Source: Lachnospiraceae bacterium
GTDB lineage: Bacteria; Bacillota; Clostridia; Lachnospirales; Lachnospiraceae
Direction: 5' to 3'
Assembly: GCA_017468395.1 (NCBI GenBank)
Contig: JAFUIR010000008.1
Location: 5,980-69,979 of the forward strand
DNA: 64,000 nt
Positions 24,018 through 41,617 of the stretch are shown piece by piece. The position numbers and the translations under genes are program-made. Below the pieces are notes generated by a model. That model ran no database searches and was not told the origin of the DNA. It worked only from the letters and a program-made list of their open reading frames with translations. Each line of letters begins with the position of its first letter. Within the stretch, counting starts at the first letter, position 1.

Positions 24018-24926
24018 ATGATTTATACGATTACATTCAATCCGGCGTTGGACTACATTGTTTCCGTAGAGGATTTTAAACTGGGAATGACAAACCGCAC
24101 TTTTGAGGAAAAGATGCTTCCCGGCGGTAAAGGTATCAATGTTTCCATGGTTTTAAAAAATCTGGGATATGAGAGTACTGCTTTGGGATTTATCGCAGGA
24201 TTTACCGGAGAGGAAATCAAAAGCCGGGTGGAAGAAACCGGATGTAAAGCAGAGTTTATTTGTCTTCCCAAAGGAATGAGCAGAATCAATATGAAACTGA
24301 AATCCATAGACGGAACGGAAATCAACGGAATGGGACCGGATATTGATAAAGACAGCCTTTCTTTGCTTATGTCGCGCTTAGAGCGTCTGCAAAAGGGAGA
24401 TATTCTGGTATTGGCCGGCAGTATTCCCAAAAGTTTGCCAAGTTCCATTTACAGTGAAATTATGGCTAGGCTTAGGGAAAAGGAAATTCTTTTTGTAGTG
24501 GATGCAACAAAGGATTTGCTGGTGGAGGCTTTGACGTACAAGCCTTTTTTGGTAAAGCCTAATCATCATGAGATTGGTGAAATATTCGGTGTCAAACTGC
24601 AAAAAAGAGAAGAAGTGATTCCTTATGCCAAAAGATTGCAGGAAATGGGAGCAACAAACGTATTGGTTTCCATGTCCGGGGAAGGAGCTGTGCTTGCGGC
24701 AGCAGACGGTAATATTTATCATTCGCCTGCGCCGGAGGGAAAACTAATCAATGCAGTGGGAGCCGGGGATTCCATGGTTGCCGGATTTTTGGCAGGATTT
24801 TTGGAAACCGGAGAGTATAAAAAAGCACTTTCCATGGGACTTGCAACGGGTAGTGCCAGCGCTTTTTCAGAAAATTTGGCAACAAGGCCGGAGGTGGAAG
24901 TGCTTTTAAAACAGATGGAGGGATAA
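24018..24926 (+). CDS. fruK: 1-phosphofructokinase
   Basis: NPALDY, GGKGINVS, KPNHHE, VGAGDSMVAGF. Confidence 0.95.
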   Translation: MIYTITFNPALDYIVSVEDFKLGMTNRTFEEKMLPGGKGINVSMVLKNLGYESTALGFIAGFTGEEIKSRVEETGCKAEFICLPKGMSRINMKLKSIDGTEINGMGPDIDKDSLSLLMSRLERLQKGDILVLAGSIPKSLPSSIYSEIMARLREKEILFVVDATKDLLVEALTYKPFLVKPNHHEIGEIFGVKLQKREEVIPYAKRLQEMGATNVLVSMSGEGAVLAAADGNIYHSPAPEGKLINAVGAGDSMVAGFLAGFLETGEYKKALSMGLATGSASAFSENLATRPEVEVLLKQMEG

Positions 24927-24928
24927 TA

Positions 24929-26893
24929 ATGAGAATAACAGAACTGCTGAGCTGGGAAAGTATTGAACTTCGGGCCGGCCCCGCAGATAAAAAAGAGGCT
25001 TTGGACATGGCAATCCGGCTCATGGAAAAGAGCGGAAAAATCAGTGATGTAGAAAGTTACCGAAAGCAGGTATATGCCAGAGAGGAAGAAGGAACCACGG
25101 GAATCGGAGAGGGAATCGCCATTCCCCACGGAAAAGGCGACGGTGTAAAGGCTCCGGGACTTGCGGCTATGGTGATTCCTGACGGGGTGGATTTTGATTC
25201 ACTGGACGGAAAGCCGGTTCACTTGATTTTTTTGATTGCGGCACCAAATACAAAAGAAAATGTACATTTAGAGGTACTGAGCAAATTGTCTGTGCTTTTG
25301 ATGGATCAGGACTTTGTGTGGCGTCTCAGATGCGCCACAAACAGAGACGAATTTATAAATATCATCAATGTTGCAGACCGGAAGACAAAGGCAGAAGAAG
25401 CCAAAAAGGCAGAGCCTGTTGCAGTAGAGGAAGTTATACTGCGGGGAAATGTCTTGGCAGTGACATCCTGTCCCACAGGTATTGCCCATACTTATATGGC
25501 GGCGGAGGGACTGGAAAAAGCGGCAAGGGCAAAAGGCTGTGCCATCAAAGTAGAGACAAGAGGCTCAGGCGGGGCAAAAAATGTACTGACAGAAAAGGAA
25601 ATCGAAGAGGCAGACTGCATTATTGTGGCAGCGGATGCAAAAGTTCCCATGGAGCGATTTGTGGGTAAGCCGGTAATAGAATGTCAGGTTTCCGATGGCA
25701 TCAGTAAAGCAGAGCAGTTAATAGATAGAGCGCTCAGTGGGGAGGTATCTCCTTATAGAGTGGGGCAGCCGAGGTCAAACAGTTTTGCAGAAACTAAAAA
25801 AGAGAGAGAAGACTACCGTGAAAAAGGTGCGTCTATAGGGCATAAAATTTATACCCATTTGATGAACGGTGTATCCCATATGCTTCCCTTTGTAGTAGGC
25901 GGGGGCATCTTGATTGCTCTGGCTTTTCTGATAGATTCTTTAAGCGTGGATATGGAAACTTTACCGGCGGATATAAGAGCAAATTTTGGCTCCATTACCT
26001 CTGCTGCCGCCGTGCTGAAGGGAATCGGGGATGCTGCTTTTGGATTTATGCTGCCGATACTTGCCGGTTTTATTGCAGCAAGCATTGGGGACAGACCGGG
26101 ACTTGCGGTAGGATTTGTGGGAGGCTTTATTGCGGCAAACGGCAAATCCGGATTTTTGGGTGCTTTGGCAGCCGGCTTTATTGCGGGTTACCTGATTGCA
26201 GGACTTCGCAAACTATTTGAAAAATTGCCGGAAATAGTAGAAAAATTAGCCCCTGTACTGCTATATCCTTTTTTTGGTATACTGTTGATAGGGTTGATAA
26301 TGACATTTTTAATTGAGCCTCCTATTGGCACCTTGAATACGGCGCTAAACGATGCTTTGACCCGGATGGGAGGCAGTAGCAAAGTACTTTTGGGTGCAGT
26401 TGTGGCAGGCATGATGGCTATTGACATGGGAGGACCTTTCAATAAGGCGGCCTATGTATTCGGAACCGCATCCATTGTGGCGGGAAATTATGATATTATG
26501 GCGGCGGTAATGGTGGGCGGTATGGTTCCTCCTTGTGCCATCGCTTTGGCAACATTGATATTCAGAAATAAATTTACAAAAGAGCAGAGAGAATCGGGAC
26601 CTGCCAATTTTATCATGGGATTGGCTTTTATTACAGAGGGAGCGATTCCCTTTGCGGCATCGGATCCCTTGCGGGTGCTTCCTTCCTGTATTTTGGGCAG
26701 CGCTGTGGCTGGGGCAATGTCTATGCTTTTTGGGTGCACGCTGATGGCACCCCATGGTGGAATCTTTGTGTTCCCTGTGGTGGAAAATCCCCTTATGTAC
26801 CTGGTTTCTCTGATTGTGGGAACAGTAGTAGCGGCCTTTGTACTGGGGCTGTTGAAAAAGAAGTTAGAGGGAGATTATTATGAAGCAACTTAG
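24929..26893 (+). CDS. fruA: PTS fructose transporter IIABC
   Basis: IIA GIAIPHG, IIB SCPTGIAHT, IIC DMGGPFNK and ITEGAIPFA. Confidence 0.95.
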   Translation: MRITELLSWESIELRAGPADKKEALDMAIRLMEKSGKISDVESYRKQVYAREEEGTTGIGEGIAIPHGKGDGVKAPGLAAMVIPDGVDFDSLDGKPVHLIFLIAAPNTKENVHLEVLSKLSVLLMDQDFVWRLRCATNRDEFINIINVADRKTKAEEAKKAEPVAVEEVILRGNVLAVTSCPTGIAHTYMAAEGLEKAARAKGCAIKVETRGSGGAKNVLTEKEIEEADCIIVAADAKVPMERFVGKPVIECQVSDGISKAEQLIDRALSGEVSPYRVGQPRSNSFAETKKEREDYREKGASIGHKIYTHLMNGVSHMLPFVVGGGILIALAFLIDSLSVDMETLPADIRANFGSITSAAAVLKGIGDAAFGFMLPILAGFIAASIGDRPGLAVGFVGGFIAANGKSGFLGALAAGFIAGYLIAGLRKLFEKLPEIVEKLAPVLLYPFFGILLIGLIMTFLIEPPIGTLNTALNDALTRMGGSSKVLLGAVVAGMMAIDMGGPFNKAAYVFGTASIVAGNYDIMAAVMVGGMVPPCAIALATLIFRNKFTKEQRESGPANFIMGLAFITEGAIPFAASDPLRVLPSCILGSAVAGAMSMLFGCTLMAPHGGIFVFPVVENPLMYLVSLIVGTVVAAFVLGLLKKKLEGDYYEAT

Positions 26894-27137
26894 ATATGTG
26901 ATTACCGATCCGGAGGGGATTCATGCCAGACCGGCGGCACTTTTGATTAAACTTACCACAGGTTTTTCCTCTGTGATTACTATGGAAAAAGGCGGAAAAA
27001 GTGGTGACGCAAAGCGCATTTTCGCAGTTATGGGGCTTGGAGTAAAACAAGGGGAAGAAGTTTTAATTACCGCCCAGGGACCGGACGAAGACCGGGCTAT
27101 AAAAGAAATTGAAGATTTTTTGAAGGAAAATCTGTAG
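26880..27137 (+). CDS. HPr-family phosphocarrier (His15 present, Arg at position 46)
   Basis: GIHARPA with His15; DAKRIF in place of LKSIM. Confidence 0.92.
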   Translation: MKQLRYVITDPEGIHARPAALLIKLTTGFSSVITMEKGGKSGDAKRIFAVMGLGVKQGEEVLITAQGPDEDRAIKEIEDFLKENL

Positions 27138-27146
27138 GAGAGAAGT

Positions 27147-28775
27147 ATGCTGACATTCCATGGAAAAAGCGTATTTGGCGGCATAGCCATCGGAAAAATT
27201 TATGTTTACCAAAAGGATAACCGATTAATAAAACGGGAAAAAATTACGGACCCGGAGTCTGAGATTGCCCGCTTTCAGAAGGCAAGGAAAGAGGCAGTAG
27301 AGCAGTTGGGAGAATTGTACCAGTCTTCCTTACGGAAAATCGGTAAATCGGAAGCGGCTATTTTTGAAGTGCATCAAATGATGTTGGAGGATTTGGATTA
27401 TGTGCAGTCCATAGAAAACATTATTGAAGGCCAAAAGGTAAATGCGGAATATGCTGTGGCAACTACGGCGGATAACTATGCCTGTATGTTTGCTTCCATG
27501 GATGATGCATATATGAAAGAAAGAGCGGCAGATGTCAAAGATGTGTCAGAGCGGGTAATCAATGTCCTTATGGGAAATAAGGACAGCAGCCCGGAAATGA
27601 CAGAGCCGGTCATTATTGTGGCGGAGGATTTGGCCCCCAGTGAAACAGTGCAGTTGGATAAAGATAAAGTGTTGGCCTTTGTGACCAGACTTGGTTCATC
27701 CAATTCCCACACGGCCATTCTGGCAAGAACCATGGGAATCCCGGCACTCATCGGTGTGGATGCGGATTTTAAAAAACTCCATGGGAAATTAGGTGTGGTG
27801 GACGGATTTAAAGGCGTTTTTTACACGGAACCGGAAGAAAGTGTTTTGCAGGAACTTGAAGAAAAAAAGCGTCAGGAAGAGGAAAAGAAAAATCTTCTTT
27901 TGTCGCTTAAAGGAAAGGCGAACGTAACATTGGACGGAAGAGAAATCAAACTGTATGCTAATATCGGAAACATCAAGGACTTAGCCTTGGTAAAGCAAAA
28001 TGATGCAAGCGGAATCGGTTTGTTCCGCAGTGAATTTTTGTATTTGGAAAAAGATAATTACCCAAGCGAAGAAGAGCAGTTCCAAGTATATAAAACAGTG
28101 GCACAGTCCATGGCAGGTAAACAGGTAATTATCCGTACGCTTGATATCGGAGCAGATAAACAGGCAGATTATTTTGATATTCCACAAGAGGAAAATCCCG
28201 CTATGGGTTATCGCGCCATCCGCATTTGTCTGGACAGACCGGAAATTTTCAAGACACAGCTTCGGGCGATTTTCCGGGCAACCGTTTATGGTAATCTTGC
28301 TATTATGTATCCCATGATTATTTCCCTGGACGAAGTGCATCAGATTCAAAAACTGGTGGCACAGGTAAAGGACGAACTTAAGGAGCAGGGGATTGCTTAC
28401 AAGGATGTAGAAGAAGGGATTATGATTGAAACCCCTGCTGCGGTTATGATGAGCGGGGAACTGGCAAAGGAAGTGGATTTTTTCAGCATTGGAACCAACG
28501 ACCTGACCCAGTATACTCTGGCCATTGACAGGCAAAATCCGAAATTGGACGATTTGTACGATGCAAAGCATCCCGCTGTCCTCAAGATGATTCAGATGGT
28601 TGTGGATAACGCCCACAAAGCAGGCATATGGGTGGGGATATGTGGCGAGTTAGGGGCAGATACAGACCTGACTGAAGAATTTCTGAAAATGGGAATTGAC
28701 GAGTTGTCCGTATCTCCGGGGAAAGTGTTGCCGGTTAGGAAAAAAATAAGAGAGATAAATCTTGATAAGAAATAA
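27147..28775 (+). CDS. ptsI: PTS enzyme I
   Basis: SHTAILAR (phospho-His), GLFRSEF, RTLDIGADK, IGTNDLTQY. Confidence 0.95.
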   Translation: MLTFHGKSVFGGIAIGKIYVYQKDNRLIKREKITDPESEIARFQKARKEAVEQLGELYQSSLRKIGKSEAAIFEVHQMMLEDLDYVQSIENIIEGQKVNAEYAVATTADNYACMFASMDDAYMKERAADVKDVSERVINVLMGNKDSSPEMTEPVIIVAEDLAPSETVQLDKDKVLAFVTRLGSSNSHTAILARTMGIPALIGVDADFKKLHGKLGVVDGFKGVFYTEPEESVLQELEEKKRQEEEKKNLLLSLKGKANVTLDGREIKLYANIGNIKDLALVKQNDASGIGLFRSEFLYLEKDNYPSEEEQFQVYKTVAQSMAGKQVIIRTLDIGADKQADYFDIPQEENPAMGYRAIRICLDRPEIFKTQLRAIFRATVYGNLAIMYPMIISLDEVHQIQKLVAQVKDELKEQGIAYKDVEEGIMIETPAAVMMSGELAKEVDFFSIGTNDLTQYTLAIDRQNPKLDDLYDAKHPAVLKMIQMVVDNAHKAGIWVGICGELGADTDLTEEFLKMGIDELSVSPGKVLPVRKKIREINLDKK

Positions 28776-29981: not shown

Positions 29982-30650
29982 TTAATGGGATTTTCGGCTT
30001 TTATTTAATTGCAGACGTTCTTTTATCGTAATATATCTGTCTAAGCCAATTACTTTTGCATTCAGTTTACATCCGTAAACGGTACTTCCATTTTCCAGTT
30101 TGTAATTTCTGACAATAATTCCCGTCAAATGAAATGTATAGTTTTCGTTTCGCTCCTGTATGTAATCCGTAAGAACTACGTGGGCAATAGCGCCGGGCTT
30201 AAATTCTCTTGCCGTGGCAGGAAGAATAAATGAAAAACCGGTGACACTGACGTCTTTAATAGTTGTGTCAAGGGCTGTGTTGTTTACCCCTATCTGGACG
30301 GAAGAGTAAAGTCCGAGAAAACAACGGAAAGCGCCTCGCCTGTTAAATTCTTTGCTGGGTCCGAGTGTGGAGATAAAATAGCAGAAATTTCCTGAATCGG
30401 ACTTTAATGTTTGAACTGTCACATTATAAAAAATGTGTGGCTTTGCATCATCAAAAGCCACAATTAAATGGGTTAAAATACCCGATGCCTTAAAGGAGAG
30501 AACTTTTTCATCCTTCATAATAGCATTAGTGTAAATACCATGTTTTTTGGGAACAACCTCCATAATTGTCAAAGGAAATTCCAATTGTTCGGAATTAATT
30601 ACTATTTGGAGAGTAAGTTTCTGCCCCATGACTAATTCTTCAATACGCAT
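29982..30650 (-). CDS. PilZ-domain c-di-GMP receptor (YcgR/DgrA-like architecture)
   Basis: RRGAFR (RxxxR) and DVSVTG (DxSxxG). Confidence 0.85.
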   Translation of the reverse strand: MRIEELVMGQKLTLQIVINSEQLEFPLTIMEVVPKKHGIYTNAIMKDEKVLSFKASGILTHLIVAFDDAKPHIFYNVTVQTLKSDSGNFCYFISTLGPSKEFNRRGAFRCFLGLYSSVQIGVNNTALDTTIKDVSVTGFSFILPATAREFKPGAIAHVVLTDYIQERNENYTFHLTGIIVRNYKLENGSTVYGCKLNAKVIGLDRYITIKERLQLNKSRKSH

Positions 30651-30794
30651 AAATACCATACCTTTTCTAAACTCTAGATATAGAATACTTGATAATTAGC
30701 CGTTGGTCAATTAAATTTGTAGAGATTACATGAATTTAACAAAAATTTTACGTATTTTTTGTAGTAAGTGTTGATAAGAAAAGCGGACCAAATA

Positions 30795-30832
30795 AATAAA
30801 ACCGAAACTTTGTAACAAGCTTCGGTTTTATT
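30795..30832 (-). terminator. Terminator of leuA
   Basis: AATAAAACCGAA...TTCGGTTTTATT directly after the stop codon. Confidence 0.75.
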
Positions 30833-30836
30833 GAGA

Positions 30837-32828
30837 TTATTTTTCATTACGGAATTGATTAGGTGTAATGCCATATTCTTTTTTGAATACACGGTTGAAA
30901 TGTTCTACACTTTCGTATCCTACATTTTCAGCAATGGATTCAATTTTCTGGCTGGTTTCTTTCAATAAACGGCAGGCTTTTTTTAAACGGGCATTTTTTA
31001 CTGCGTCTTGGAAAGTCATGCCGGACTTATCTTTAATATATTTGGAAAGATAAGTTTTGGAAAGATTGAAATGCTCGGCAAGTTCCTCTAAAGTAACATT
31101 TTTATAGTCAGACTGGATGTAATTCATAATATCCACGATGCGCTCTTCGCGTCCTTCAGATACATTCTCGCTCTGGGCAAGTTTGTTAGCAGCGGATACG
31201 AGAGCAGCGATGGAACTCTTAATAATATCCTCGTCTACGCCGACGCCCCAGAAAAGTTTTCCGTCTTTTTTGATGCCCACATAAGAAGCCGCTTTGGAGT
31301 GTGAACCTGTGGAAATAGCATGCTCTTCATAAATGGAAAGTTCGTAGGTAATGCCAAAATAGGTTTTAATGGCATTGCTGACTGCATCCAGACGTCCGTT
31401 ACCGCCAGCGGCAATAGTACGTTTTTCGCCGGACTGCTCAATGATTACCTCTGCCTGAATACCGTCCACTTGTTTGAAGTGACATTCAGGGATGCCAAAT
31501 ACATCGTGCTGATTAATGTATGTTTCTTCAAAAATCTGATAAATATCTGCAGGAGCCAATTCCTGATGGCGGTGGTCGGAAACACCTTTTACAAGGTAGC
31601 CAACTTCTTCACGCATTTTGTCGGGAAGAGTGAAGCCAAAGTTTTGTTTCAGGATAAAGGCAATGCCGCCCTTACCGGACTGGCTGTTAATGCGGATAAC
31701 ATCGGATTCGTATTCTCTGCCAAGATCCTGAGGATCGATAGGAAGATAGGGTACATCCCATCTTTCGCCGCTCTTGCCTTCGTTTCTCCAAGCCATACCT
31801 TTGGAAATGGCATCCTGATGGGAACCGGAGAAAGCAGTGAATACCAGATCACCGGCATAAGGTGCTCTTTCATATACTCTCATGCGGGTCAGATTTTCAT
31901 ATGTTTCACGGATTTTGGCAATGTTGGAAAAATCAAGTTGGGGATCTACGCCATGGCAAACCATGTTCATTGCTACGGTGATAATGTCTACGTTACCGGT
32001 TCTTTCACCGTTTCCGAAAAGAGTACCCTCGATACGGTCTGCGCCGGCAAGTACGCCGAATTCTGCGTCACTGACGCCGCAGCCCCTGTCGTTGTGAGGA
32101 TGGACACTGATGGAAACAGCGTCGCGATATTTCAGGTTTTTATGTATATACTCCACCTGACAGGCGAATACATGAGGCATAGCCACCTGAACAGTGGTGG
32201 GAATATTGATGATGACTTTGTTATCCGGAGTGGGCTGCCATACGTCCAAAACAGCGTTACAAACTTCCAAAGCATAGTCTACTTCTGTGCCGGGGAAACT
32301 TTCCGGACTATATTCAAAGGTAAAGTTACCGTCGGTTTCATCAGCAAGTTTCTTTAAAAGTTTTGCCCCATCAATAGCCAACTGTTTTACTTCTTCTTTG
32401 GATTTTTTAAATACCTGTTCTCTCTGTGCCACGGAAGTAGAGTTGTAAAGGTGAACAATGGCATGGGGTGCACCTTCCAGAGCTTCAAAAGTTCTCTTAA
32501 TAATATGTTCTCTGGCCTGAGTTAAAACCTGAATGGTTACATCTGCAGGAATCATATTCCGCTCAATGAGTGCACGTACAAAATTATATTCAGTTTCGGA
32601 AGAAGCAGGGAAGCCTACTTCAATTTCCTTGAAGCCGATATCTACCAGCATTTGGAAAAACTCCAGTTTTTCTTCCAAACTCATGGGCTCGATTAATGCC
32701 TGATTTCCGTCGCGAAGGTCTACGCTGCACCAGATAGGAGCCTTGTCGATGGTTTCTTTCTGAACCCAGTCATAGGTTACAACAGGCGGCATAAAATAAG
32801 GTTTCACATACTTTTCTTTGATATTCAT
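30837..32828 (-). CDS. leuA: 2-isopropylmalate synthase (LeuA2 type) fused to a C-terminal AraC HTH domain
   Basis: [28 protein letters not shown], intact regulatory domain, then in frame [11 protein letters not shown]...[33 protein letters not shown] before ATG at 32828. Confidence 0.95.
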
Positions 32829-32841
32829 ATTACCCTCCATT

Positions 32842-33125
32842 AAAAAAGTCCCTACAAAAATGTAAACTAACATTTTTATAGAGACGCAAACTACGTTTAC
32901 GCGGTACCACTCTATTTCGTGATGGTCATCACGCTCTCATCGGCACTTATATGCCTAAGCCCTTTTACGGCGGCAAGTCCGTCTGTACTTACTGGGATAT
33001 CCAAACACCGGAAATCCGTTGGGCCAGCAGCTCCAAGGCCAGTTCACCATTTACATCTGACTGCCTTGCACCAACCGGCAGTTCTCTGTTGTCCAGCAAA
33101 TCGCTACTATTCCTCTTCAACGCAT
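32842..33125 (-). ncRNA. T-box riboswitch, Leu (CUG specifier)
   Basis: Minus strand: AGUA motif, AGAGA...GGUG distal loop, GAA-CUG specifier (33040-33042), T-box AGAGUGGUACCGCG, terminator GUCUCUAUAAAAAUG/CAUUUUUGUAGGGAC plus U run. Confidence 0.9.
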
Positions 33126-33239
33126 TTCTTATTCATTTTTGTAAATAGTACCATAGTTTTGTATAAGAAGCAATAGGTAAAATGAAAATTTATCAATTTT
33201 ATTGATTTATTTTGCTTTTAAAAAGGATAGGTGCGTGTA

Positions 33240-34009: not shown

Positions 34010-34012
34010 CCG

Positions 34013-34086
<74 letters not shown>

Positions 34087-38026: not shown

Positions 38027-38099
38027 GCGCCTCTAGCTCAGTTGGTAGAGCACCTGACTCTTAATCAGGGTGTCCAGGGTTCGAACCCCTGGAGGCGCA
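38027..38099 (+). tRNA. tRNA-Lys(CTT), CCA not encoded
   Basis: GCGCCTC/GAGGCGC acceptor stem, anticodon arm CCTGA-CTCTTAA-TCAGG, GGTTCGAACCC. Confidence 0.97.
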
Positions 38100-38104
38100 C
38101 TTCG

Positions 38105-38340: not shown

Positions 38341-38398
38341 TTGACAACAAATGGGTAATATGTTACCATTTATCCCAAGAAAGGTAACATGTTACCTT
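38341..38398 (+). promoter_or_regulatory. marR promoter with two palindromic operators
   Basis: TTGACA-N17-TACCAT; GGTAATATGTTACC (38354-67) and perfect AAGGTAACATGTTACCTT (38381-98). Confidence 0.75.
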
Positions 38399-38411
38399 GT
38401 TGGAGGTGCCT

Positions 38412-38882
38412 ATGAATTTTGATGAAGTTATGAAACATGAGAATATAGACTTTAGCGGTATAGAAACGTCTTATTTTCTCTTAGGATTACTTAGCGCATT
38501 TGACAACCGGTTTCAGGCGGTGGCAGATAAACTCATTGGGGAAATCAGTTGGAAACAGTTTTTTGCAATTATTTGCATTAATCTCTGTAAAGAAAGCCCC
38601 ACTATAAAGGAACTGGCGGCAATCATGGGTAGTTCCCATCAAAATGTAAAACAAATTCTCTTAAAACTTGAGAAAAAAGGTTTTGTGGCTATATCCGTAG
38701 ACCGGGAGGACAAGAGAAAACAAAGGGTTGAACTTACGCAGAAATGCTTGGAGTTTTGTAATGAGAATGACGGGAAAAGTAATATGGCAGTTACTGCCAT
38801 GTTTGCAGGCATTTCAGAAGAACAACTTCGCATAACAATACAGACGATTATGCAGATGGAAGATAATTTAAAAAAATTGTAA
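38412..38882 (+). CDS. MarR family regulator
   Basis: SWKQF, TIKELA, SHQNVKQILLKLEKKGFV, DKR. Confidence 0.9.
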   Translation: MNFDEVMKHENIDFSGIETSYFLLGLLSAFDNRFQAVADKLIGEISWKQFFAIICINLCKESPTIKELAAIMGSSHQNVKQILLKLEKKGFVAISVDREDKRKQRVELTQKCLEFCNENDGKSNMAVTAMFAGISEEQLRITIQTIMQMEDNLKKL

Positions 38883-40089: not shown

Positions 40090-41607
40090 CTATTCAAAAT
40101 ACTTCATGGGGTCAACCGCAACATTATCTACGAAGACTCCAAAGGAAAGGTTTGGTCCGGTTGCCATGCCTGTGGCACCTACATGACCGATAATAGTTCC
40201 GGCAGATACTTCATCTCCTGCGGAAACCAGAACATCTTGCAAGTGACCGTAAATGACAAGGGTATCGTCTGCACCTGCAACGGAGATGTAGATGCAGTTA
40301 CCGTTATGGGGGCTATAAAGGGTCTCAGTAACAATACCTGCTACTGCGGAATAAACATCGTCCCCTTTTTCACCAGCAATATTAATGTGATCCACAGTTT
40401 TGTTTTCGCCGGTAACAGGATGGACACGGGTACCGAAGGTACTGGAAATGGTGGAACTTTCTGTAGGCCAAGTCCATAAATCTATCTGTATAGCGTCGGT
40501 ATTCTTGTCTGTGCCGGTAACAGGATTGGCCACAGGGGGATTTTCTGCTTCGGTATTCGCAGGTATCTCGGTGGCAACAGCATCTGCAATTTCTGTGCTG
40601 TCGGTGTTTTGCTGAGATTGTGCCCTATTACTGTCATCCGGTTCGGCAGCATTTGCTGATGTCAGGAAACAAGTGCCGATGCACAAAATCAGTGCAAAGG
40701 CAGCAATGCCGCCAAACAGCGTAAACTTTTTAGGTTTCATAATGGCTATAATCCTTTCTTCAATTGTGTTTTTGCTAAAACTATTGAAGAGAAGCGTAGG
40801 AACAGACCGTTGCTCCTCCATGCTGACAAGGGTTCGGGCATAACCGGTCCTGGATTCTGTGCCGGATTTTCTTACCACAGCCTCGTCACAGGATAGTTCT
40901 AAGTCCCGGTTGAAAAGAAAATACATAATCCAAACCAAAGGATTGAACCAGTGGAGGCAGAGGGTGATAATCATGAGTAATTTTGCCACCGGGTCAAAAC
41001 GGCGGATGTGAATGTACTCATGCAGGAAAATATAATTTAGTTGCTCCCTATTATCTAAATCTACTGTCTTTGGCAGCAAAATCACAGGGCGGATAAAGCC
41101 ATACGTCAGAGGGGATGAAATAAGGTCTGACCGGCGGATGCTGATTTCACGCCTTGCGGGGTGTTCCCTTAGCCACTTCTCTGTATAGTTCGTAGAAACA
41201 GGTAAGGAGGTTTTGTAATTTCTAAGGCATGTTATGTAACATATTGCAAAGAAGACCGCAAAGAACATAAATCCCACAAACCATGTAATTTCCCAAGGAA
41301 AAGTGTTATTACCGGCATTTGTTACCGGGGCTGTATCGTGGAAACCCATGGTTTCGAAAGGTAACAAAGGCAGCGCAGTTGCGAGCGGGGACTCTGTGAT
41401 AACGTCCTGCACTTTTTCATTTCTGCCAAAGAGTGAGTACACGCTAAAGGCTGAGGGGATAGAAAAAGGCAGTATCAAACGGACCAGTGCAATGCCCCAT
41501 AGAGAAAGGAAAAATCCTTTGGGAAAGCGGTTAATGAACAGCGTCCGAATGAGCGCAATTACCGCAATGAGTACTGCGCCGGACAAACTCATTTGTAATA
41601 AATTCAT
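40090..41607 (-). CDS. BlaR1/MecR1-type M56 metallopeptidase receptor with a C-terminal degenerate M23/LytM domain
   Basis: SPLTYG, HEYIH (HExxH), HWFNPLVW, ELSCD; then TM, linker and an M23 fold with VDHIN and GPNLSF. Confidence 0.9.
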   Translation of the reverse strand: MNLLQMSLSGAVLIAVIALIRTLFINRFPKGFFLSLWGIALVRLILPFSIPSAFSVYSLFGRNEKVQDVITESPLATALPLLPFETMGFHDTAPVTNAGNNTFPWEITWFVGFMFFAVFFAICYITCLRNYKTSLPVSTNYTEKWLREHPARREISIRRSDLISSPLTYGFIRPVILLPKTVDLDNREQLNYIFLHEYIHIRRFDPVAKLLMIITLCLHWFNPLVWIMYFLFNRDLELSCDEAVVRKSGTESRTGYARTLVSMEEQRSVPTLLFNSFSKNTIEERIIAIMKPKKFTLFGGIAAFALILCIGTCFLTSANAAEPDDSNRAQSQQNTDSTEIADAVATEIPANTEAENPPVANPVTGTDKNTDAIQIDLWTWPTESSTISSTFGTRVHPVTGENKTVDHINIAGEKGDDVYSAVAGIVTETLYSPHNGNCIYISVAGADDTLVIYGHLQDVLVSAGDEVSAGTIIGHVGATGMATGPNLSFGVFVDNVAVDPMKYFE

Positions 41608-41617
41608 ACCGCTCACC

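Follow-up and report, generated by a model that had tools for sequence, protein, structure and literature searches.

A LeuA-AraC fusion protein in Lachnospiraceae, a candidate leucine-responsive autoregulator with a conserved palindrome ahead of its gene

Gene structure and domain architecture

We analyzed a 64,000-nucleotide (nt) stretch of Lachnospiraceae DNA (contig JAFUIR010000008.1, hereafter the window), which carries on its minus strand a gene for 2-isopropylmalate synthase (IPMS, LeuA) that runs on into an AraC-type DNA-binding domain with two helix-turn-helix (HTH) motifs. The gene and the parts of its product are as follows.

30837..32828, minus strand: coding sequence (CDS) of the leuA-araC fusion, 663 codons plus stop
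32833-32838, minus strand: ribosome-binding site (RBS) GGAGGG, read from the sequence
31905..32738, minus strand: catalytic TIM-barrel domain, residues 31-308 (Pfam HMGL-like, 244 bits)
31647..31850, minus strand: accessory post-catalytic domain, residues 327-394 (Pfam IPMS_D2, 113 bits)
31170..31562, minus strand: leucine-binding regulatory/dimerization domain, residues 423-553 (Pfam LeuA_dimer at 423-550, 96 bits)
31146..31169, minus strand: linker ENVSEGRE of about 8 residues, residues 554-561, between the AlphaFold2 helices 535-553 and 562-573
30840..31145, minus strand: AraC/XylS-type DNA-binding domain, residues 562-663, with seven helices and two HTH motifs

The list of open reading frames (ORFs) contains a single minus-strand frame here, 30837..32873. 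Translation starts at the ATG at 32828 and not at the start of this longer ORF, because GGAGGG lies 4 nt upstream of that ATG, because the longer ORF would start within the terminator hairpin of a T-box leader (see below), and because close homologues begin with MNIKEKY.

The catalytic motifs DLRDGNQ (R39-D40) and HPHNDRG (H243-x-H245) are present, and the protein scores 804 bits against NCBIfam PRK03739 (2-isopropylmalate synthase; cutoff 455). The regulatory domain carries a G476-N-G478-x-L loop, a Y-E-E-H-A segment and the motif W527-G-V-G...I, which align with residues 531-535, Y554-A558 and 619-627, respectively, of Mycobacterium tuberculosis LeuA (1SR9/3FIG). These we take to be the leucine-contacting positions of the M. 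tuberculosis enzyme. At the C-terminus, Pfam HTH_18 matches residues 583-661 with 81.6 bits (cutoff 33.6) and HTH_AraC residues 625-661 with 60.5 bits; a match to FtrA was also among the NCBIfam results. The predicted recognition helices are LSKPYLSKYIKEKSG and VGYENVEHFNRLFKK, both at least 90% conserved across orthologues. In a sequence search of the PDB, M. tuberculosis LeuA was the closest solved structure (1SR9/3FIG, 511 bits), the C-terminal 100 residues matched AraC-family DNA-binding domains (YesN-type, XylR, Rns, AraC, MarA and SoxS), and no entry held the IPMS and AraC parts together.

The AlphaFold2 model has a mean predicted local distance difference test score (pLDDT) of 77. It is confident for the barrel (mostly 80-95), for the regulatory domain (beta-beta-beta-alpha twice, residues 445-553) and for the seven-helix DNA-binding domain (residues 562-661, pLDDT 85-92). 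Confidence is low in this monomer at residues 320-390, the accessory region, as expected because this part is domain-swapped in the IPMS dimer (PMC9860122).

The protein is thus a long-form IPMS of the 'yeast-Mtb' type by its sequence, with an AraC-family DNA-binding domain and, at its gene, a T-box leader. A preliminary description of the window had read the locus as one continuous ORF from an intact LeuA (RD, HxH, regulatory domain) into a complete double-HTH domain. We could confirm this in every part: the frame crosses the junction as quoted there without a stop and its internal methionine is not conserved, the domain scores, motifs and M. tuberculosis alignment identify an intact LeuA, and both HTH profiles and the seven modeled helices identify the AraC domain. 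The predicted reaction, condensation of acetyl-CoA with 2-ketoisovalerate under inhibition by leucine, is supported indirectly, by the leucine-specific T-box and by a ratio of nonsynonymous to synonymous substitution rates (dN/dS) of 0.07 in the catalytic part.

Distribution of the fusion and selection on its parts

Contigs assembled from four metagenome runs, each from a different study, show an identical junction. One metagenome contig of 4.6 kb covers the entire fusion gene, and three others cross the junction. Six positions within the HTH part vary among those assemblies, and 6/6 are third codon positions (hand arithmetic).

Among protein clusters, the fused architecture is shared by all of the best 120 (79-94% identity), which come from Lachnospiraceae or Roseburia and are named only '2-isopropylmalate synthase'. 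A later search added about 115 fused clusters that belong to other clades, among them those of the cultured Mordavella massiliensis and Aequitasia blattaphilus. From data with one genome per species, 80 loci were retrieved and verified, 78 of them complete. The 517 related species genomes found in these data are not to be equated with 517 fusions, because the search pattern was located in the HTH. All complete loci (78/78) encode a single ORF of 662-677 amino acids (aa) with both catalytic motifs intact. The genera represented among the 80 loci are Roseburia, Acetatifactor, Eisenbergiella, Waltera, Suilimivivens, Merdisoma and Lachnoclostridium, and the loci are named as Lachnospiraceae apart from two mislabelled bins and a few titled 'bacterium' or 'Clostridiales'. 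The two bins, L030 and L038, are labelled Bacteroidales and Odoribacter splanchnicus; their locus context is near-identical to that of Waltera-type Lachnospiraceae, and bin contamination is the probable explanation.

We calculated dN/dS by the Nei-Gojobori method for 170 pairs with dS between 0.05 and 1.2. The values were 0.07-0.08 for the catalytic domain, 0.12-0.16 for the regulatory domain, 0.09-0.12 for the HTH and 0.09-0.11 for the whole gene. By this measure the HTH is under purifying selection and not degenerating, and the enzyme and HTH halves are both intact and both constrained.

These data bear on the alternative that the fusion arose by accident and is neutral or decaying (read-through of adjacent genes, or an artefact of assembly or annotation), with a functionless HTH. 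The database name, which mentions the synthase only, an in-frame stop in one metagenome-assembled genome (MAG) and a lower GC content at third codon positions (GC3) in the HTH part of the window gene would be in line with it. Against this stand the four independent assemblies, the 78/78 intact species orthologues, an HTH dN/dS of about 0.1, the stronger conservation of the HTH than of any other part in the pseudoenzyme relatives described below, and the lack of a family-wide GC3 difference. The accident explanation is already contradicted by these comparative data, and we regard it as very improbable. Its special cases, an assembly artefact or a strain-specific fusion, which the preliminary description had named as possible objections, were ruled out by the four assemblies, the 120 clusters and the 78/78 loci.

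The HTH-coding part of the window gene (30840-31145) has a GC content of 0.35 and a GC3 of 0.34, versus 0.45 and 0.43 in the rest of the gene. The low GC had suggested a foreign origin of the HTH, which was rejected, as no GC3 difference exists when averaged over the 78 orthologues. We also rejected a separate HTH protein made from an internal start: besides the non-conserved methionine, promoter and RBS signals were not above chance.

Two irregular sequences were seen. In L059:21-2139, a MAG of about 3.8x coverage, a lone in-frame stop after ...EPMGL splits the fusion, either by sequencing error or as a recent pseudogene. P0009 (805 aa) is a fused homologue with several internal duplications and probably a mis-assembly, not a real long variant.

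A palindromic element ahead of the promoter

Upstream of the gene, the following features were identified.

33187..33215, minus strand: candidate operator GCAAAATAAATCAATAAAATTGATAAATT, palindrome ATCAAT-AAA-ATTGAT, position weight matrix (PWM) score 31.3 bits
33145..33173, minus strand: predicted sigma-70-type promoter, with -35 TTGCTT at 33168-33173, a 17-nt spacer and -10 TACTAT at 33145-33150

An alignment of the upstream regions shows that the element belongs to the whole family. It is 29 bp long, with the consensus TTAAAATAAATCAAT-AAA-ATTGATTAAAT, a palindrome of ATCAAT/ATTGAT, and was found in about 70/76 promoters, with or without a T-box downstream. Its C/G positions are conserved (1.8 bits at ATCAA). 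A PWM was built from the 76 orthologous promoters and used on both strands of 1.5 Mb with a cutoff of at least 18 bits. All matches (72/72) lay upstream of a member of the fusion gene family, compared to 0-1 matches in shuffled sequence. Within the 64 kb of the window, no second site reached even 10 bits. The element is also strong in distant orthologues (35.1 bits in Mordavella, 29.5 bits in Aequitasia), which share only 55-63% identity with the window protein in their C-terminal domains.

The element has a preferred position. In 68/76 loci it ends 6-7 nt ahead of a weak -35 (cTTGc), and a 17-nt spacer and TGn-extended -10 follow in 59 of those 68. The -10 of the window promoter is likewise TGn-extended (TG at 33152-33153, read from the sequence). 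The element thereby spans roughly -70 to -42, the zone that AraC uses at araI. In clades with a degenerate right arm, a second 14-bp left-arm unit was found 96-165 nt upstream, with 10 matches versus about 0.1 expected. Two recognition units per promoter fit a dimer with two DNA-binding domains.

One and the same chance match to the operator pattern was seen in the six gut-metagenome contigs L111, L118, L119, L133, L141 and L168, apparently within an unrelated AraC-type CDS (by-eye reading).

Relatives that lost the catalytic part

We searched exhaustively with the C-terminal 264 residues as query and clustered the results at 50% identity. About 24 clusters cover the regulatory domain and the HTH together. 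Several long members lack the catalytic motifs, with RDGNQ changed to KDENQ or AYGSR or deleted, and HPHND changed to QPFDE, RPKES or FQFNR; these members also lack detectable HMGL and IPMS_D2 domains. BLAST identity of the N-terminal half to the window protein falls from 48% to 24% in the decayed members. Such lineages are rare, with 1-4 member sequences per cluster.

Two of the decayed genes, P0137 and P0144, occupy the slot alaS ... metallophosphatase-scpA-scpB-[gene] ... M24 peptidase / Na+-decarboxylase operon. Because the intact Mordavella and Aequitasia fusions sit in the same slot, both are positional orthologues that decayed in place. The identities by domain are listed here.

Intact pairs: catalytic 79-85%, regulatory 55-74%, HTH 63-85%
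P0144 versus Mordavella: catalytic 26%, regulatory 48%, HTH 71%
P0137 versus Mordavella: catalytic 44%, regulatory 51%, HTH 66%

The order of constraint is therefore reversed in the pseudoenzyme relatives, where the HTH is the best-conserved domain. Decay can go further: P0279 is a complete 355-aa protein found on four contigs, with vestiges of the barrel followed by LeuA_dimer and HTH_18, and its gene starts 4 nt past a release-factor-like gene. Neither the loops aligned with the leucine pocket (GNGxL, WGVG..D) nor the recognition helices vary among the fusion, pseudoenzyme and short forms. A complete short gene was verified only for P0279/P0124. Several other apparent short forms were discarded as fragments on tiny contigs; P0143, for example, is a fragment of the 571-aa P0278.

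Ahead of P0137, a weakened operator persists in an unchanged promoter layout (17.1 bits, the top-scoring site in 22 kb). No operator was found near the P0144, P0142 and P0278 genes, which follow closely behind scpB, rpoD or a sigma-factor gene, an arrangement that suggests co-transcription.

Among divergent members, two have low-complexity insertions, made of NNSQVEGLQD repeats in P0129 and of AKYSAEP-like repeats in P0131. The P0129 gene is preceded by a YoeB/RelB toxin-antitoxin pair (L211:5146-5666).

A model of leucine-responsive regulation

IPMS forms a homodimer and binds leucine in its C-terminal regulatory domain; in solution, leucine is reported to make both this domain and the accessory domain more rigid (PMC9860122). 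In an engineered sensor, an isolated PF08502 (LeuA) domain serves as the part that responds to ligand (PMC13381585). The fusion would therefore set two DNA-binding domains on a ligand-sensing dimer. On balance, we consider it probable that the protein is both an enzyme and a leucine-responsive autoregulator, probably with further targets.

Under this model, a predicted active and leucine-inhibitable enzyme carries the AraC DNA-binding domain at its C-terminus, and the LeuA dimer sits where ordinary AraC regulators have their sensor/dimerization domain, attached by 8-residue tethers. We infer that the dimer would bind the palindromic operator ahead of its own -35, and that leucine occupancy would alter either DNA binding or the contact with RNA polymerase. 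Transcription of the first committed gene of leucine synthesis would then track free leucine. In the lineage of the window and in some others, the leucine T-box would act as a second check, on the charging of tRNA-Leu.

As to the sign of the response, we lean towards net negative feedback, by activation that leucine would turn off, because the usual site position looks activator-like and the -35 is weak. The indications are mixed, as the common layout looks like one for activation and the layout of two Roseburia loci, L015 and L019, would imply repression. Other genes are probably also controlled in trans, because relatives without catalysis and without the operator still keep the sensor and the HTH. 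A regulator that stays under selection with no enzyme left to autoregulate should therefore have targets elsewhere.

The preliminary description had already proposed that the enzyme may double as a leucine-responsive transcription factor. This proposal now has an operator, auxiliary half-sites and sensor-HTH relatives in its favor; DNA binding, the leucine effect, its sign and the other targets keep their status as predictions.

Several observations weigh against the model. The operator could be bound by another regulator, as the link between protein and operator is one of association. In the window, the distance from operator to -35 is 13 nt, versus 6-7 nt in 68/76 orthologues; the extra spacing, roughly half a helical turn, may have arisen by insertion in this lineage. 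In L015 and L019, the operator overlaps the -10/+1 region of a consensus TTGACA-17-TAAAAT promoter, about 40 nt before the start codon. AraC DNA-binding domains usually bind asymmetric sites of 17-20 bp, so how two of them would read a palindrome is unclear. Covariation between HTH and operator was sought across the orthologues and gave no signal, being undetectable because the recognition helices are nearly invariant. PWM scans of the 64-kb window and of about 1.4 Mb of flanks gave no second target. A metagenome-wide scan for AAATCAANNNNNTTGATTAAA was uninformative: among the matches listed, most were chance ones in AT-rich environmental DNA, and L113 and L136 were the only family promoters. 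Finally, PF08502 domains bind different effectors depending on the enzyme, such as isoleucine in CimA (PMC13381585), which leaves some doubt about what the decayed forms bind.

Some of these points would also suit a functional HTH that acts only on other loci, with the upstream element being the site of another regulator or similar to an UP element. The indirect link between protein and operator and the missing covariation signal agree with this, as do the A/T-rich composition of an element located in the UP-element region (-70 to -42) and the absence of such an element near those family members that are most decayed. An UP-like or foreign site would not readily account for conserved C/G positions within the palindrome (1.8 bits at ATCAA), for an element that occurs at no other promoter in 1.5 Mb and tracks the gene over lineages with about 55-63% identity in the C-terminal domain, for its partial retention upstream of the pseudoenzyme P0137, or for a two-unit site that matches a dimer with two DNA-binding domains. 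We consider this explanation unlikely.

A different possibility accepts the operator and questions the signal. LeuA might serve for dimerization only, giving constitutive autoregulation or titration, or a substrate (ketoisovalerate, acetyl-CoA) might be sensed through the catalytic domain. In crystal structures, M. tuberculosis IPMS is said to change little on leucine binding, according to a statement quoted in PMC9860122, where rigidification of the regulatory and accessory domains by leucine is described for the enzyme in solution. The DNA-binding domain lies 8 residues from the regulatory domain and is not attached to the catalytic one, and forms without the barrel or the active-site motifs keep the loops of the leucine pocket invariant. 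A signal other than leucine therefore seems to us unlikely as well, slightly more so than a foreign operator.

Returning to leucine as the signal, a broader version of the model can be put forward tentatively. LeuA-AraC could be a master sensor of leucine, and of branched-chain amino acids, in Lachnospiraceae with a regulon in trans, the path from enzyme to minimal regulator could be still extant, and PF08502 could be an unrecognized sensor domain of transcription factors. We regard this version as possible, though rather doubtful.

A leucine T-box as an additional layer

The leader between promoter and start codon contains two further features.

32877..33129, minus strand: T-box leader (Rfam RF00230, 118.8 bits, gathering score 93)
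32848..32885, minus strand: T-box terminator hairpin followed by a T-run (terminator scan), overlapping the 3' end of the Rfam match

The specifier is CUG (Leu) at 33040-33042, with a specifier loop of GAA-CUG-G in the alignment. This T-box had been missed in the preliminary description. The window gene thus shares the bona fide leucine-specific T-box control known from Firmicutes. Among fusion orthologues, only about 30% have a T-box, with a specifier that is always CUC or CUG; in many others the leader is short and matches no Rfam family. Given this frequency versus a nearly universal operator, the T-box is best seen as an added layer and not as the defining control. We also looked in metatranscriptome data for the transcript and its start; the single run, with about 5% of words matched, was uninformative.

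Comparison with known systems

AraC/XylS regulators with enzyme-derived N-terminal domains include the Ada methyltransferase-AraC protein and the DJ-1/PfpI-type AdpA/FtrA-like proteins. The fusion resembles them in having a two-HTH AraC domain after an enzyme-derived sensor/dimerization module, and its site by the -35 resembles araI. It differs in that its N-terminus is a complete and apparently active enzyme of about 550 residues, and in that its sensor is the PF08502 LeuA domain.

The trigger enzymes PutA, BirA and NadR and the archaeal RbkR (PMC5397151) likewise combine a metabolic enzyme and a DNA-binding domain in one polypeptide, and the fusion would probably share with them the autoregulation of its own pathway in response to a pathway metabolite. 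The fusion differs from them in its enzyme fold, in its DNA-binding domain, which is C-terminal and of AraC type and not a ribbon-helix-helix or winged HTH, and in its proposed signal, an allosteric end-product on a dedicated regulatory domain in place of a substrate or redox state. The analogy to PutA drawn in the preliminary description therefore applies to the logic of an enzyme and a DNA-binding domain in one chain; the proteins are not of the same family.

BzdR, a shikimate-kinase-like domain joined to an HTH (PMC3602430), offers an evolutionary parallel. In that case the intermediate was reconstructed in the laboratory, whereas the active-enzyme, pseudoenzyme and minimal sensor-HTH forms of LeuA-AraC are natural, and some are positional orthologues. 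Compared to canonical M. tuberculosis LeuA (1SR9/3FIG), the first 553 residues are alike in domain order, catalytic motifs and leucine-pocket loops; relative to canonical long-form IPMS, the fusion has about 110 extra residues of DNA-binding domain. Unlike leuA in the leuA-leuCDB operon of the Faecalibacterium/Subdoligranulum type, the fusion gene stands alone and does not head leuACDB. Full-text literature searches turned up neither work on a LeuA-AraC fusion nor any on PF08502 serving as a transcription-factor sensor.

Dominant butyrate producers among the gut commensals include the Lachnospiraceae (Roseburia, Acetatifactor, Eisenbergiella and relatives), whose amino-acid sensing is poorly known. 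If the model is true, a biosynthetic allosteric site doubles as the sensor of a transcription factor, and one ligand-binding event would feed back on both enzyme and transcription. The series from active fusion to pseudoenzyme to minimal sensor-HTH protein would then be a rare natural record of an enzyme turning into a regulator. It would also point to a leucine-responsive genetic switch that synthetic biology could take up as it stands, and a new annotation would be due for thousands of database entries now called only '2-isopropylmalate synthase'. The 29-bp operator and the availability of cultured hosts (Waltera hominis, Mordavella massiliensis, Aequitasia blattaphilus, Suilimivivens aceti) make the model directly testable.

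Gene neighborhood and minor observations

One further feature lies downstream of the gene.

30795..30832, minus strand: intrinsic-terminator-like hairpin, 5 nt past the stop codon (terminator scan)

Because of this hairpin just past the stop codon, the fusion gene is monocistronic. Its neighbors in the window are unrelated (a PilZ protein, SGNH hydrolases, a lipoprotein and a fructose-type phosphotransferase system (PTS) cluster), and no leu or ilv genes were found within 10 kb of the fusion in the 80 loci. The neighborhood was dropped as a clue to the regulon, as synteny is not conserved among these loci. The closest placeable unfused LeuA heads a leuA-leuC-leuD-leuB operon, from Faecalibacterium or Subdoligranulum by the names of its LeuC relatives. 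An attempt to reach the leuCDB promoters of fusion genomes through LeuC homologues was given up, since none of the named matches was from Lachnospiraceae and the source was Faecalibacterium/Subdoligranulum.

The PilZ gene (29982-30659, minus strand) is next downstream, 177 nt away beyond the terminator, an adjacency that is not conserved in other species. The PTS cluster (24018-28775, plus strand) encodes a pfkB-family kinase, a fused EIIA-EIIB-EIIC, an HPr-like ORF (26880-27137) and enzyme I (27147-28775). In an Acetatifactor MAG, a c-di-GMP-I riboswitch (61.7 bits) lies a few kb from the fusion gene (L060:9809-9915). The window also contains tRNA-Pro(CGG) at 34012-34086 (minus strand) and tRNA-Lys(CTT) at 38027-38100 (plus strand), as well as a BlaR1-like peptidase M56 fused to an M23 peptidase domain (40090-41616, minus strand), with a MarR-family gene nearby (38397-38882).

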